Shown here one piece after another: positions 1,241 to 56,430 of a stretch of 64,000 bases of DNA. The notes under the pieces were generated by a model, which searched no databases, was not told the origin of the DNA, and worked only from the letters and a program-made list of their open reading frames with translations. The position numbers and the translations under genes are program-made. Each line of letters opens with the position of its first letter. The stretch's first letter is position 1. Source of the stretch: Octopus sinensis (Eukaryota); contig NC_042997.1 of NCBI RefSeq assembly GCF_006345805.1, positions 167,028,001-167,092,000 of the forward strand, written 5' to 3'.

Positions 1241-1304
1241 ATATATATGTATATATATCTATTTTTCTATCCTCCAAGAAATCTAATGCGCTTGGCTTAG
1301 ATTT

Positions 1305-1392
1305 CCCTTGGGGGCTGCCCAGATCGGAGCAATCTCAAGATTAATCAGCCGAAATTGCGAAGATGATCTGGTTCTTGACTGATGACTGAGGG
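1305..1392 (+). ncRNA. Candidate hammerhead ribozyme with reversed strand order (pseudoknotted) and kink-turn
   Basis: CTGATGA 1379-85, GAAA 1351-54, NUH=ATC 1332-34; stem I TCAAGA 1335-40/TCTTGA 1373-78; stem III GCAAT 1329-33/ATTGC 1354-58; stem II GGCTG 1313-17/CAGCC 1346-50; extra helix CCAGATC 1319-25/GATCTGG 1365-71 joined by a k-turn motif. Confidence 0.6.
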
Positions 1393-2079
1393 CTTCGAAT
1401 GACCCGTCCTGTGGTTCTCGTGTCGTCTCCTTGGTGTTTCACGTTCTTGTCCCAGTTTGTATTTATTTTTTACTGTTTACATATATATATATATATATAT
1501 CTGTGTGTGTGTGTATAGTGTGTGTGTCTGGGGGGGACGTGTGCACATGCAAGCATGTCTGCGTATGTATTCATGTAAGTGTGTGTGCTTTGTTGCTGTT
1601 CTTGAGACACAGTTCAGTGACTGAGCAGATTTATGATTACAAAAGCGGTCCAACCATGACAAACCCATCTTTTTTACTTTATACATAGTGCATCAAGGAC
1701 TATATTATACGATTTGTGCTTCCGTTAAATAAAAACGATAGCATATGATTTGAAGATGATTTGGCAAATATTGCCAGCAGGACGAGCTGTTACGAACAGA
1801 CTTTCTTGGATGACGTGAAGAATTTGTGTATGTATATGCGCCAGTCTCTGTGTGCAGTTATGCATGTGCATGTTTATCTTGCTCTGTATCTATGTGTGTG
1901 TATGTGTGCGTGTATCTACTTTATGCGAGATTAAAAAAAAAGCCGAATGTGTTTTGCTATGTGGCTTGAATCATTGTCCCTGCTATGACCTATTTTCACC
2001 ACATAGGTCCATCTACTAACTATATAATGCGGACATGCCTGGCGGTTGCTTTGCTAATCTGTGCAAAACACATCATGAT

Positions 2080-20394: not shown

Positions 20395-20456
20395 ATGCTG
20401 ATGATGGCTGCACTTTTCCTTGCGGAAAATAACAGCCGAAACTAAATTTAGTACAT
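20395..20456 (+). ncRNA. Inverted copy of type I hammerhead (stem I shortened to 3 bp)
   Basis: ATG-CTGATGA(20398-404)...GAAA(20438-41)...GTA-CAT. Confidence 0.75.
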
Positions 20457-41401: not shown

Positions 41402-42975
41402 TAAACTTAGATAAACTTAGATATGTTTCGACCAAAGATTGGTCCAGGCCATGTCTAACTTAATAGCACCACCTGATAGGATTATTCGAATCTTGTTTAA
41501 GTCAAGTTTTGTTCAAGTAGTGAGTTCTTGTTGGGTGAGTTATATCCAATTATGGGTGGTTTATCTGGTATTCTTTGAAGGAATCTATCCAGACTCTGTT
41601 TAAAGTTGATGGGATCCTTTTCCTCTTTGATCTCTCTCGGGACAATGTTAAATAGGGCAGGGCCTGTTGAGGAAAAGAAATTATGTTGCAGTGTACATGT
41701 ATGTTGTGATCTTGAATTGGGCAGGGGACGTATAGCCCGTGGTCCAAGTCTTGGATGAACCTTGAAGCTAATGTTTAGGTCGTTTGGGCAAAGTTGGCGG
41801 TATATTTTCCACATCGTACAAATGATGTACCGCTCACGGCGACGCTGGAGGGAGTAAAGTTTCAAGGCTTTAAGGCGATCCCAATAATCGAGAGCAGCCA
41901 TGCCTTCAATGCGTTTAGTGAGTGCCCTCTGGGGTGACTCAATTCTGGAGATGTTTTGTCTTGTGTGAGGAGACCACAGTGGGCAGCAGTATTCAAGGTG
42001 TGGCCGTACAAAGGAGAAGAAAAGTGGTATGATGACACCTTGTTCTCTGGACCGGAAAGTTCTTAAGATCCAGGAACTCATCCTACGAGCTATATCGACC
42101 TTCTTGTTGATGTGTGCACTCCAACTGAGATCGTCATCAACAATTACACCCAGGTCTCTGATATTGTTAGAGGCTGTGAGCAGGTCCCCTGAAGGAAGAG
42201 AGTATGGCTGTTTTAGTGAGGAGTTTCTTCCAAAATGCATCAGCTCAAATTTTCCCTCGTTCAGTTGCATTTTGTTTCTGTCTGCCCATTGACTCACAGC
42301 ATATAGATCAGACTGGAGTTGAGTTCGGTCTGCTTCTTCATTGACGATTTGCTGGAGCTTGGTGTCATCAGCAAATATTTTCACTTTGCAGTAATGTACG
42401 ACACTGGAAAGGTCGTTTATGTAGATTATGAAGAGTAGCGGACCCAATAGATTATGAAGAGTAGCGGACCCAAGACAGTCCCCTGGGGGACACCGCTGGT
42501 GACTTTTGCTGGGCTTGAGTGGACTCCATCAACTACAACATGTGTTGTATTCGCCAGGAAATACTTGATCCAGTGTAGAACTTTTCCACGGATTCCAACA
42601 TTTGCCAATTTTGAGAGTAGGATATTATGGTCTACCCTGTCGAACGCTTTACTGAAGTCAAGATATATGACATCAGAGTTCGAACCTGTTCCCAAGGCTT
42701 TGAGTACATCTTCAATGTGGTGTAAGAGCTGTGTTAGACAGTCCCTGCCACAGCGAAAGCCATGCTGATTTGCATTTAGGAGTTTCTGGGTCTCCAGGAA
42801 GTCAGCCATCCTTGATCTTAACACTCTTTCAAACACTTTGATGATGTGGGAGGTGAGTGAGATTGGGCGATAGTTGAGTGCGAGGGATCTGTTTCCCTGT
42901 TTGAAAACCGGGATGACTGACTGGGATAGAAACTGTTTTGGTATATAACCTGCATCTAACGAATTTCTCCAGAAA
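41402..42975 (-). mobile_element. 5'-truncated CR1/L2-clade LINE (young)
   Basis: NYRPISLT, NQHGFR, YLDFSKAFDRV, SGVPQGTVLGPLLF, FADD, RDLGV, RPHLEY motifs; 3' stem-loop and short tandem tail TCTAAGTTTA. Confidence 0.92.
41497..42975 (-). pseudogene. LINE reverse transcriptase (ORF2 C-terminal half) broken by a 26-bp duplication
   Basis: ORFs 42426-43058 and 41497-42447; TAGATTATGAAGAGTAGCGGACCCAA in tandem at 42422-47 and 42448-73. Confidence 0.9.
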
Positions 42976-42997
42976 TATATATATATATATATATATA

Positions 42998-43613
42998 TAA
43001 CTAATGTAGGATAAAAATTTTTTCGGGAAAAAAATTTTATCAATGGCCAGTATATCAAAAAATACCTTTAAAGGTTGAATTTATAAAGAATTTACAAAAT
43101 GTGGGCAAAAGAAAAATTCTAATGCCAAATATGCCGAAAAAAAGACAAAATTGTCAATAACCATTATAATTTATGCGTCTCGAAACAAACCGATAGAAAT
43201 TTCTAAAAAATCCGTTATTACCGTATTGGTCCCAATTTCGGGGTTAATTCATGAGAATTTTCCCCTCTTCAGCGATAAATACGTGAGATATAAGTGAAAT
43301 ACTTACTCATACCCATGGAAAAAGCAAGCACTAAGTCCTGGGCAGACTTAAGTACCCCAAATATATCCAAAATAGAAAATCTTCGGCACATCTCGAGACA
43401 CGTGTGATTCGAACTAGAAACTATCACAGAGTGAGAGAATCCGGAAGTGAAGACTATTAAATTTATAACTAATGTAGGATAAAATTTTTTTTTCGGGAAA
43501 AAAAATGTTATCAATGGCCAGCATATCAAAAATTATAATGGTTATTGACAATTTTGTCTTTGTTTCGGCATATTTGGCATTAGAATTTTTCTTTTGCCCT
43601 CATTTTGTAAATT
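42998..43613 (-). mobile_element. ORF-less retrozyme-like element: 468-nt unit, partial tandem, inverted segment
   Basis: TAACTAATGTAGGATAAAA...ATATCAAAA at 42998 and 43466; 43532-43613 is the reverse complement of about 43090-43172; in a TA tract. Confidence 0.8.
43218..43278 (-). ncRNA. Type I hammerhead ribozyme
   Basis: Minus strand: TTATCG-CTGAAGA-GGGG.AAAATTCTCATGAATTAA.CCCC-GAAA-TTGG.GA.CCAA-TA-CGGTAA. Confidence 0.9.
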
Positions 43614-44215: not shown

Positions 44216-44327
44216 ATATATATATATATAATTTTATGTGAAATAGAAAGATGAATAATCTTGTTGTAGATTAATCAAAAGTTAACCGATACCTTAGTAG
44301 CAAAAATCACAGCAGTAAACAGCACGG

Positions 44328-45743
44328 TTGGAGGTACAACCATCTGGCGTTGTAACAGACAATTTGGTTAAAAACATCTCTCTAAGATTGTCTGGCTTGT
44401 CCGCCAGTGCCGATATTTTTATGCAGAAAGCGGAATTTTATAACGCCGCACTGTCCAAGGCCGGTTATAGGCAGAAGGTAATTTATATTGATCCGGCCCT
44501 TCCGATGCCATCATTCGGTCATCAGGATAGGGCCGTATATAATAACATTAACATTTTAAGTAAGGACGGGAGCGCGGCGGATGCCGGGGTAGTCGCTCCC
44601 GCATTTAATTTAGCGAACAAGGATAATTATCGGTCCGGGAGGTCTTACACTAACCCAAGACCCGTTATTTATCCGAGAATCACCCACCAGAGTGCGAGAG
44701 CTGGCGTCCCGACCCATCACACTGATAGGAATAAGCATATATGGTTTGTAATCCCCTTTGGTAAGCAGATTAGAACTAACCTCCCCCTCTTGTTTAGACA
44801 AGCCATCGCCAATAACTTCCCCAGAAATTCCAAATATTACTCCACGGTTAACTCACATAAAGTTAGGATAGCTTTCTCCAACACTAAAAACCTCGCCCAG
44901 ATAATCGCCTCCCATAATAATAGGCTACTTACTAAGACCCTATCACCTTTTTCCGGAGGCACAGCCTCTTCCGCTCCCGGTTTGATGCTCAGTAGGAATA
45001 ATTATAGTAGTAATAATGATATGAGAGCCAGTACAGTGACACATAATCTCAGATCCAGCCAGGGAGTACCCACTAGGGGTATAGTTATAAATAGGGGTGT
45101 TGTGGTTGACGGTAACAATGGGAGTAGGGTAGAGAGCCCCAATAGCAACCCCAGCATCATTTCCCGCAATAGCAGCACCACGGGCACTAGCAATGACAGT
45201 ACTCTGATAGATAGTGGAGAATCAGGGGTTATTCCTATAGTTAATAGTGACGTAGTGGAAAATAGAGTAGGAAGCGGCTGCAGGTCTCGGAACGAATATA
45301 GTGACAGGAACGCAGTTCTAATTTCAGAAACTAATCCTAGCAGATTAAGATTTACGTCGGCGAACTCCAAGATCAAAAACGCCGTCTACCAATGCAAGGT
45401 TTACACGGACTCAGATGTCTTCACTTATGTAGGGGCATCATCCTCAAGATTGTCTTTGTGTGTCTCCAATCATTACGCAACTTTTCGGGACGTGATCAAA
45501 CGCCAGACCACGGGACTCAGTAAGCTAATATGGCGACTGAAGGATACGAACTTAAGCTACAGGCTGGAATGGTCAATTTTGTCGGTGGCCCTCCCATTTG
45601 ATAGGGGCAGAAGACAGTGCAACCTTTGTGTCTCCGAACTCTTCCATATTTTGTTTGCCAGAGGCCGGATGGTAAACGGGCTCTTACAGTCGGCTTTTCG
45701 ATGCCCCCATTGGCGGCGTTACACTTATCTGGCTTTTAAATAG
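44328..45743 (+). CDS. PLE protein C-terminal part: RT thumb, low-complexity linker, GIY-YIG endonuclease (5'-truncated)
   Basis: KNISLRLSGLS...YNAALSKAGY, IWFVIPF...IIASHN, AVYQC...YVGAS...H, LSKLIWRLK...WSIL, CNLCVSE...N...CPH. Confidence 0.8.
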   Translation: MEVQPSGVVTDNLVKNISLRLSGLSASADIFMQKAEFYNAALSKAGYRQKVIYIDPALPMPSFGHQDRAVYNNINILSKDGSAADAGVVAPAFNLANKDNYRSGRSYTNPRPVIYPRITHQSARAGVPTHHTDRNKHIWFVIPFGKQIRTNLPLLFRQAIANNFPRNSKYYSTVNSHKVRIAFSNTKNLAQIIASHNNRLLTKTLSPFSGGTASSAPGLMLSRNNYSSNNDMRASTVTHNLRSSQGVPTRGIVINRGVVVDGNNGSRVESPNSNPSIISRNSSTTGTSNDSTLIDSGESGVIPIVNSDVVENRVGSGCRSRNEYSDRNAVLISETNPSRLRFTSANSKIKNAVYQCKVYTDSDVFTYVGASSSRLSLCVSNHYATFRDVIKRQTTGLSKLIWRLKDTNLSYRLEWSILSVALPFDRGRRQCNLCVSELFHILFARGRMVNGLLQSAFRCPHWRRYTYLAFK

Positions 45744-55444: not shown

Positions 55445-56430
55445 GGTGAGAGAGTTGGTATGTGAAAGCACATTGTTGGATTTATAAAAAACGAAGCTTG
55501 CGTTATATGGTTAAATAATATATTTAAGTCGTTATGTTAGAAAATGTTATAAAATTTTGTGTATAGTAACATAGTCTTTTGAAATATAGCCGGTTTCGTA
55601 ATTTCTTTTCAAATATCTCAAATTTCTTTACGTACATCGTGTCATGTTTTTTCTATGTTGGGAAATATGGAGTTCCAGACAGGGGAAGGTAATCAGGGAT
55701 TTTTTTCTGGTATAAGCGAGATAATCAAACATGTTGGGAACGACTAATTAAGCATGATTTAGTTTAGAAAGAATAGATTGTGGTTAGGTTTTGCTTTATA
55801 TTTTTTCAATGAGGTGAGTTTCCTTATTTAAAAATGTTAGAAATGGTTAAGTTTTGGATTATATTTTTCAATGAAGAATGTTTCCTTGTTTAATCTAACT
55901 TGTGTTGGTGTTTCAATAGCACATGGATAGAATGGAAAGATTATAAGTTGTGGTAGTAGTTGTTTTGCGCATTTCTCAATATGTTCACTAAAGGGTATCA
56001 TTCTGTATTCTGGGAATGCAATCTGTTGTCGATGCAGAGTGCATCTGCGTCTGAGCGATAATCCCGTGGACCCTATGTAGTTTGGGCGGCAGCCCGAGCA
56101 TCTTATGACATAAATTAGGTTTTCTGAAGCACAAGTAAAATTAGATTCGATTTTGAATTTTTGTCCCTCATTGAAGAGGAATTCTGATCTTTCTAGGTTT
56201 GGGCATGTTGCGCAATTTGGTCTACCACATTTCTTCTACTTGTGCATCCGTTATTTCAGAAAATAAAATTGCCTTTGTGAGGACCTTTTTTAGTTATTTC
56301 GGTTGTTTGTAGTTTTTAATGATTTTATGTATGTTTAAAATTTCCTTTAATTTGGGGTCTTTATGTTGCATTGGTAAATTCTGGGTGATGATGTTGAAGG
56401 CTTCTTTGTTTCTGGGGTTTCTTCGGTTTG
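55445..56430 (-). mobile_element. Neptune-like PLE 3' fragment (Cys-rich linker, GIY-YIG, pLTR)
   Basis: NPRNKEAFNII...KCGRPNCATCP...NFTCASENLIYVIRCSGC..YIGSTG; decayed U3-A8 HHR at about 55581-55617. Confidence 0.85.

Follow-up and report, generated by a model that had tools for sequence, protein, structure and literature searches.

A predicted hammerhead ribozyme opened inside its catalytic core in Penelope-like elements of Octopus sinensis

A stretch of 64,000 nucleotides (nt) from Octopus sinensis (assembly GCF_006345805.1, contig NC_042997.1, positions 167,028,001 to 167,092,000 of the forward strand; hereafter the window) contains all parts of a hammerhead ribozyme core in an order that none of types I, II and III would give, and the question that this locus raises is whether such an arrangement could be a working ribozyme. 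The motif lies in a 5'-truncated copy of a Penelope-like element (PLE) at 1267..1481 of the plus strand, which is inserted in (TA)n and belongs to a tandem type without open reading frames (ORFs) that we call family 1. From the sequence evidence presented below we consider it likely, with a probability of roughly 0.78, that the motif is a self-cleaving hammerhead of the non-circular class (circular order C-S-G) that is opened inside its catalytic core. Here S, G and C stand for the strand blocks with the NUH cleavage site, the GAAA and the CUGANGA, respectively. Hammerhead numbering, kink-turn (k-turn) nomenclature and the stacking of four-way junctions are general knowledge and were used as such.

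All core parts named in the initial annotation were present, and every named pairing within 1313-1385 was Watson-Crick perfect. Reading the plus strand from 5' to 3', the 5' strand of stem II (1313..1317, with G1313 as G10.1) pairs with 1346-50 and is followed by the 5' strand of helix X (1319..1325, pairing with 1365-71), the non-bulged strand of a k-turn (1326..1328, with 3n G, 2n G and 1n A), and the 3' strand of stem III together with the NUH site (1329..1334, with U16.1 at 1333 and C17 at 1334). Stem III is formed by 1329-33 and 1354-58, and the site A1332-T1333-C1334 places the predicted cut at 1334/1335. The 3' strand of stem I (1335..1340, pairing with 1373-78) and a 5-nt linker from stem I to stem II (1341..1345) then lead into block G (1346..1358), which combines the 3' strand of stem II (C11.1 at 1350), G12-A13-A14-A15.1 (1351-54) and the 5' strand of stem III. 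With the bulged strand of the k-turn (1359..1364; variable L1-L3, then 1b G, 2b A and 3b U) the internal loop reads G1326-G1327-A1328 on one side and G1359-A1360-A1361-G1362-A1363-T1364 on the other, and it is followed by the 3' strand of helix X (1365..1371, pairing with 1319-25) and by the 5' strand of stem I with C3-U4-G5-A6-N7-G8-A9 (1373..1385; CTGATGA at 1379-85). Stem II does not follow these letters; the next element is the 3' strand of a helix P0 (1388..1402), and a hairpin H (1274..1311) stands upstream of G10.1. These strand positions supported a pseudoknotted hammerhead in S-G-C order, outside types I, II and III, as had been proposed. Stem III and helix X form one hairpin, and since its loop pairs in both directions, with stem I on the 3' side and stem II on the 5' side, the core contains a double pseudoknot.

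CTGANGA alone is unremarkable in the window, with 31 matches where 23.2 were expected. The full descriptor, consisting of the core, stems I and III of 4 base pairs (bp), an upstream stem II of 5 bp with G10.1-C11.1, and helix X of 5 bp, gave a single match in the window, at 1313/1334/1351/1379, and no match in 150 dinucleotide-shuffled windows (19.2 Mb) or in 3000 local 300-nt shuffles. Rfam gave no match in the window at gathering score, and plain minimum free energy (MFE) folding of the window copy did not contain the core (z -1.1), as expected for a pseudoknot. The motif has CUGANGA, GAAA, UH, a free N7 and an H17 that is not G, together with the three stems (I, II and III) around the core and the pairs G10.1-C11.1 and A15.1-U16.1, while its circular order differs from the C-G-S of types I, II and III and its core is pseudoknotted.

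The element is repetitive in the 2.72-Gb genome (the 40 best matches among 2400 candidates were 94-100% identical), and we aligned 66 of the 75 distinct full-span copies of family 1 to a model with helices P0, H, II, X, III and I, leaving out 9 with indels, truncation or near-duplication; the aligned copies are mutually related, and part of the set was chosen by the core pattern. Paired cells made up 91.2% of the alignment, against 88.0% after shuffling and 27-51% in slid controls, and by helix they amounted to 95.8% (II), 96.1% (III), 93.9% (I), 90.5% (X), 93.0% (H) and 86.5% (P0). The analysis supported the proposals that the upstream GGCTG serves as the 5' strand of stem II, which opens the core at A9/G10.1, and that helix X connects the distal ends of stems I and II. 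Changes on both sides of a pair were found at 19 pairs and in 107 cells, compared to 11.0 and 37.9 in shuffled alignments (0 of 500 shuffles reached this). Among them were a change from U-A to C-G at 1316/1347 of stem II in 3 copies, C-G in 34 and U-A in 22 copies at 1325/1365 of helix X, and A-U/G-C as well as A-U/U-A switches in stem I.

What closes the opened core was suggested by the full-length copies. P0, with a length of 15 bp, pairs 1388-1402 with a strand that lies 5' of hairpin H, and the chain in family 1 runs from A9 over 2 nt into P0, then through H and over 1 nt to G10.1. Because P0 starts just after A9 and H ends just before G10.1, it is a predicted four-way junction of P0 and H that stands in place of the A9-G10.1 bond in full-length copies. 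RNAfold of such a copy formed P0, H, X and III and left the strands of stems I and II free. The initial annotation had closed the ends differently, with a helix of 1305-11 and 1386-92; this helix did not hold up, as 77% of its cells were paired and one of its pairs was broken in 38 of the 66 copies, whereas P0 and H recur in all three families described here. The 5' hairpin at 1271-1314 did form in the MFE fold of the window copy, where it extends H and takes G1313-G1314 from stem II. The proposed switch between this hairpin and the closing helix is not general; it arises because truncation removed the 5' strand of P0 (1257-71 in full-length copies) from the window copy.

Since the main set was partly chosen by the core pattern, we measured core conservation on a separate set of 30 copies that were selected by P0 and H only, without use of the core. 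Cells off the majority made up 26/324 (8%) in the core and 14/29 (48%) at N7, compared to 147/1028 (14%) and 352/1831 (19%) in the two flanks, which means that the core is better kept than its surroundings (Fisher p 0.003 and 2e-7). In the 66 aligned copies, H17 was C in 60, A in 5, T in 1 and G in 0, and N7 was T in 27, A in 22, G in 16 and C in 1. The loop between X and III has the standard k-turn parts in family 1 (C-stem, 3-nt bulge, tandem G.A/A.G, NC-stem), with the tandem GA/GA intact in 63/66 copies, 3b.3n as U.G in 56/66, and the bulge L1-L3 as GAA (26 copies), AAA (19), GAG (13), TAA (7) or TAC (1). A G at 3n permits k-turn folding in metal ions, according to PMC4382518. The k-turn of the initial annotation thus fits the standard form, but it is not a general feature of the design, being absent from family 2 and from coral and crustacean Naiads (by eye in the latter two). 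A family-1 subfamily (L113, L127) was also seen that lacks the k-turn GA on the bulged strand and keeps the helices.

Altogether three families were found that have different stem letters and the same fold, which is a stronger test of the fold than covariation within family 1. Family 2 (L207-L210, L227-L256) consists of tandem units of 822-850 nt in arrays at 17 loci, with at least 40 copies that are 100% identical over 221 nt (40/40 best matches). Its pairing was complete in stems II (6/6), III (4/4, site GUU) and I (4/4) and in P0 (5/5) and H (4/4), with P0 directly after A9 and H directly before G10.1; helix X, judged by eye, is looser (3 + 3 bp flanking a mismatch), there is no k-turn, and the linker between stems I and II is 3 nt. 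Every catalytic residue is kept in this young family with its identical copies. As it is very young, an active partner protein should exist, though cephalopod Naiads have been described as remnants. Family 3 gave 412 pattern matches against 0 for the control, and II, X, III, I, H and a 3-bp P0 pair in most of 31/32 copies, with a linker of 1 nt, the site GUA and the k-turn in the majority sequence. Across the families, full-length copies have the start of P0 0-2 nt after A9 and the end of H 0-2 nt before G10.1, and the strand order was unchanged in more diverged single copies. A tract resembling a 3' splice site before G10.1 in family 2 prompted us to consider that block C is joined by splicing, which we rejected, as there is no matching donor after A9 and family 1 has no AG before G10.1.

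Family 3 matches the published end of an octopus Naiad, a type of PLE, and families 1 and 2 share only the ribozyme design with it and gave no BLAST match. Craig et al. 2021 (PMC8557442) report that Naiads have no canonical hammerhead, flag eight of them as 'HHR_half_core', two of these in cephalopods, without folding these motifs, and describe (TA)n targeting. We folded the last 300-650 nt of 51 of the 54 published Naiad consensus sequences, by eye and not by program, which applies to all results on Naiad ends given here; for EuTe, Movir, Hcon, Asuum, Ptep and the corals the taxon was taken from the label. The split form was recognized in 10/51 ends (Obim, Ovul, Esco, Amil, Aacu, Anas, Chem-3, Movir-2, Bfor and EuTe). 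The Ovul end is identical to family 3 and the Esco end is decayed; the Anas end has stems II of 6, III of 8 and I of 6 bp, with X of 10 bp and P0 of 8 bp directly after A9; in Movir-2, P0 and H lie only partly in the stretch viewed, and in Bfor stem I has only ~2 bp. An uninterrupted type CSG was seen in 6/51 ends, all from nematode Naiads (Nbra-1, -2, -3, Hcon, Hpol and Asuum), in which the interaction helix flanks block C; two CSG sequences were known before. In six ends from arthropods (Ptep, Smim, Dst-1 to -4), GAAA stands upstream of CUGANGA and stem II is ambiguous. Their order is S-G-C, with stems I and III being long in Ptep and Smim, and in Smim a hairpin seems to be inserted between stem II and GAAA, which would be a split block G. 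No hammerhead was seen in the stretch viewed of the other 29 ends. Bivalve, hemichordate and Chem-1/-2 ends carry other conserved structured motifs where the hammerhead stands elsewhere, one of them GGGTG ... CTYACTC ... CACCTG and another in Bpla/Mphi/Scon/Mmer and neighbours, which are candidate self-cleaving RNAs. The ends of Chem-4 and Movir-1 have a twister-like motif.

A connection between family 3 and a Naiad ORF is suggested by the published consensus, and one between family 1 and Naiads by analogy in design, target and layout. No reverse transcriptase (RT) frame was found upstream of the 32 family-3 copies, and the Naiads found in the genome were only remnants, of which the 5' and RT pieces (L290-L296) had no linked ribozyme. 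We conclude that the predicted motif is real, non-random and conserved across families and phyla. It is also probable that many Naiads of ctenophores, cnidarians, nematodes, arthropods and cephalopods, as well as the non-autonomous elements derived from them, have active hammerheads with a non-circular permutation, which share one circular order and are opened at different places, including the core, where a four-way junction would stand in for the A9-G10.1 bond.

How the motif relates to known hammerheads could be specified further. The initial annotation had held that no natural hammerhead of this form was described, which does not apply to the reversed order: Eckert et al. 2023 (PMC10085705) list types SGC (583 sequences), CSG (2) and GCS (1) that cleave at 0.004-0.19 per min, and find non-circular permutations in no genome of a known organism except for GCS-1. 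Known alignments, as they state, leave no more than 1-2 nt between CUGAnGA and the stems next to it, and block C is assumed to be uninterruptible. Like type SGC (HRIMA-1 and variants), the octopus motif has the linear order S-G-C, a short linker between stems I and II (5, 3 and 1 nt in families 1, 2 and 3) and an interaction helix (X). Unlike in type SGC, where CUGAnGA is joined to stem II, the 5' strand of stem II here precedes everything else, a predicted four-way junction takes the place of the A9/G10.1 link, both strands of helix X are tied to stem III, and families 1 and 3 have a k-turn between X and III; moreover, SGC ribozymes came from metatranscriptomes, whereas the split form occurs in thousands of copies in an animal genome. 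With type CSG the circular order is equal, such that joining the ends and reopening between stem III and helix X would give CSG, but the motif is opened elsewhere, its block C is split, and it does not have the linear order C-S-G with intact blocks. The motif would work like an SGC or CSG hammerhead and is a member of neither type, because its block C is split.

According to Cervera and de la Pena 2014 (PMC4209133), PLE hammerheads are of type I in canonical order, have a minimal palindromic stem III, act as dimers, and keep one extra nucleotide between 9 and 10.1 as well as G10.1-C11.1. The present motif likewise sits in the terminal repeat of a Penelope-like element and keeps G10.1-C11.1, but unlike theirs its order is permuted and its stem III is not palindromic. 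Non-LTR (long terminal repeat) retrozymes, proposed PLE derivatives (PMC7229834; bioRxiv 10.64898/2026.07.22.740005), share with family 1 the ORF-less tandem units with one hammerhead motif each; theirs are of type I in units cited as ~225-350 nt, compared to 735-850 nt and a permuted ribozyme in octopus. With Naiads the octopus elements share the (TA)n target, partial tandems, inverted 5' pieces and a split ribozyme near the 3' end (in 10 consensus ends), while family 1 has no ORF and, beyond the ribozyme, no homology to the 3' region of Naiads that could be detected. Compared to the standard Kt-7-type k-turn (PMC5061560, PMC4382518), the k-turn here is embedded in a hammerhead and is missing from family 2 and several Naiad forms. 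PMC13725137, citing Weinberg 2015, mentions reported hammerhead variants that have additional helices. In a literature search that covered mostly open papers we found no hammerhead with helices at 9/10.1, though an earlier report may exist, no retroelement hammerhead with a k-turn and no folded Naiad ribozyme. What appears to be new is a core opened between A9 and G10.1 and closed by P0 and H, whereas the S-G-C order was already known.

The copies themselves offered a further view of the ribozyme. The insert in (TA)n, initially described as ~225 nt long, measures ~215 nt (about 1267-1481, with its start at about 1267-1274) and corresponds to the 3' part of a tandem unit of ~770 nt. Family-1 copies share a constant 3' end at ~1481 followed by (TA)n, with variable 5' truncation and some inverted 5' pieces, and longer copies have head-to-tail units with 735-806-nt spacing at 9 loci (a tenth spacing, of 1765 nt, represents two separate inserts and was left out). 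These units have no coding frame, and thus no ORF of Naiad type (N-terminal GIY-YIG plus RT). Such a layout, with (TA)n as the target, partial tandems and inversion of some 5' pieces, is typical of non-autonomous Penelope-like elements. A pattern built on the core's 3' half had 4128 genome matches against 20 for a reversed control, and a looser core pattern 13,100 against 339, partial copies being included in the counts of 4128 and 13,100. Relatives were also present in assembled contigs of four sequencing runs under three organism labels; a (TA)-to-1335 joint in run X19 was not used, as its short side has only 20 letters. As side observations on the family-1 unit, a GAAA-tetraloop hairpin ~250 nt 5' of the ribozyme is kept across subfamilies, the unit starts with ATG or a GC-rich motif, after which come a GTAAG that resembles a splice donor and a long tract of pyrimidines, and one copy (L022) adjoins a homeobox exon of Hox type.

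If the predicted ribozyme cut the RNA that is reverse-transcribed, copies should start at its site. In a blind set of 92 sites among the first 100 matches of the core-3'-half pattern, fetched without a view of the upstream side, 22/92 began in 1335-1349, compared to 3, 3, 6, 2 and 4 in five 15-nt windows upstream (p 4e-8). Counted by eye, 34/39 distinct (TA)n junctions listed for 1324-1340 fell at 1335-1340. Reverse-strand junction counts with one left anchor were 8 (1303-19), 270 (1324-40) and 159 (1346-62), of which only the shape, a step at the site, was used, the right anchors covering different subfamily sets. For family 2, 14/21 junctions lay at or 3' of its own site, two of them exactly there. 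Such a step inside the structure at NUH seems to fit template 5' ends made by the ribozyme better than a stall of the RT, and we regard it as indirect evidence of cleavage in vivo.

These observations can be combined in a tentative model. P0, H, X and III would fold first as a nested scaffold, as in the MFE of the full-length copy with free I and II strands, after which the loop of the X/III hairpin would pair 5'-ward (II) and 3'-ward (I). P0 and H may stack as a four-way junction such that G10.1-C11.1 can still stack on A9.G12, and the k-turn, where present, would bend helix X back towards the distal ends of stems I and II. Tandem or read-through transcripts would then be cut 3' of C1334 (1334/1335) into unit-length RNAs, which, by analogy with retrozymes, may circularise. 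An RT/GIY-YIG protein from a Penelope-like element, most likely one of Naiad type, would prime at a (TA)n nick and inside the RNA, in the way shown for a Poseidon element, whose RT initiates inside its own RNA; priming here could take place on an internal UA tract of the element RNA, ~145 nt 3' of the cut. Cut templates would give short copies that start at or after 1335, and uncut or circularised templates the longer and tandem copies.

Three other explanations were considered. With tandem arrays this common (the 9 family-1 loci and the 17 of family 2), PLE hammerheads dependent on dimers, and pairing across units equally possible, cleavage might occur only in tandem or between molecules in a strand-swapped form, in which stem I 5'-CUGAUGA-P0 of one unit would combine with H, II, site and GAAA of the next and the linear order across units would be C-S-G, in the way that canonical PLE hammerheads act as dimers. 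All partner strands, however, lie within ~150 nt of one unit, P0, H, X and III are the local MFE, stem III lacks the palindrome of dimer-dependent hammerheads, and autonomous Naiad consensus ends have one complete motif each, which makes this form unlikely. We also find it improbable that the motif is structured but non-cleaving or decayed, for example an RT-binding structure, with the 5'-end step arising from an RT stall, a transcription start or a host nuclease. The large insertion in the core, the low or protein-dependent activity of other PLE hammerheads and the behaviour of family 3 described below would suit this explanation, but the step occurs at NUH in two families of unrelated sequence, it lies inside the structure and not at the 3' edge that an RT meets first, the core is kept apart from a free N7, G never occurs at H17, and the young identical copies of family 2 retain all catalytic residues. 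Finally, an ordinary type SGC with uninterrupted block C, in which stem II would be 1386-89/1345-48 with two C bulged before GAAA, needs no core insertion and its 4 bp can form in the window copy, but it is very improbable given that this stem is 75.7% paired with covariation not above shuffles (2 cells vs 1.9), gives a duplex of -2.0 vs -6.8 kcal/mol for the upstream stem II, and does not occur in families 2 and 3, in which the letters following A9 are paired in P0 instead.

For the self-cleaving hammerhead that we favour, several observations have to be set on the other side of the balance. The covariation expected in aligned copies was present in number, but a tree gave 1-3 switches per covarying pair in family 1, hence few independent compensatory events, and by mutual information with average product correction (APC-MI) only 2/25 top pairs were structural, the rest being subfamily markers. 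Two helices at A9/G10.1 go far beyond the 1-2 nt of Eckert et al., the window copy, having no 5' strand of P0, may be inactive, and BLAST found no homology between families 1, 2 and 3 outside the ribozyme. The 8/270 ratio overstates the step, which is ~six-fold in the blind set, ~9 of the 14 family-2 junctions lie on TAT microhomology, and family 3 shows no 5'-end pile-up, with 1/32 copies starting 3' of the site. An autonomous partner was not found in the genome. The hammerhead of a Poseidon PLE is reported to have required protein for cleavage, to have been dispensable for in vitro insertion, and to have had no RNA-seq ends at its site.

Other elements in the window and the genome deserve brief mention. 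Canonical-order hammerhead-like motifs occur in the window at 20398 (+), 20169 (-) and 43272 (-); in the inverted pair 20169/20398, stem III is palindromic, A9 and G10.1 are separated by one extra nucleotide, and the stem II letters equal those of the permuted motif. At 55840-56235 (-) lies the GIY-YIG end (Pfam PF01541, E 6.5e-4, below cut-off) of an abundant PLE with C-terminal endonuclease (L131-L160; 150 scored matches), which at its 3' end carries a palindromic half motif of the GAAACCGGTC type. This PLE was rejected as the partner, as it gave no BLAST match to the family-1 ribozyme and has a different 3' end; at L133 and L134 a C-terminal-endonuclease PLE is joined to a decayed family-1 relative with an identical junction on two chromosomes. 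A second PLE-like RT/endonuclease piece without Pfam match lies at 44319-45743 (+), and RT pieces of a long interspersed nuclear element (LINE) at 41497-43067 (-). Elsewhere in the genome, L224 is a fully palindromic element with CTGATGA on both strands.

If the predicted ribozyme cleaves, the catalytic strand of the hammerhead would tolerate an opening at A9/G10.1 that a four-way junction closes, which would make this position a free engineering port, and the split form would represent a blind spot of all current descriptors. The k-turn may offer a way for helix X to reach stem III, a geometry flagged as unexplained by Eckert et al., and the 5'-end step would be a rare case of genomic evidence for cutting, by a hammerhead of PLE type, of the RNA that serves reverse transcription. 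If our interpretation is true, non-circular permutation would move from metatranscriptome contigs into animal genomes, with more than ten thousand copies, the rule of an uninterruptible block C would be broken, and there would be an answer to why Naiads, dominant in some genomes, lack canonical hammerheads.
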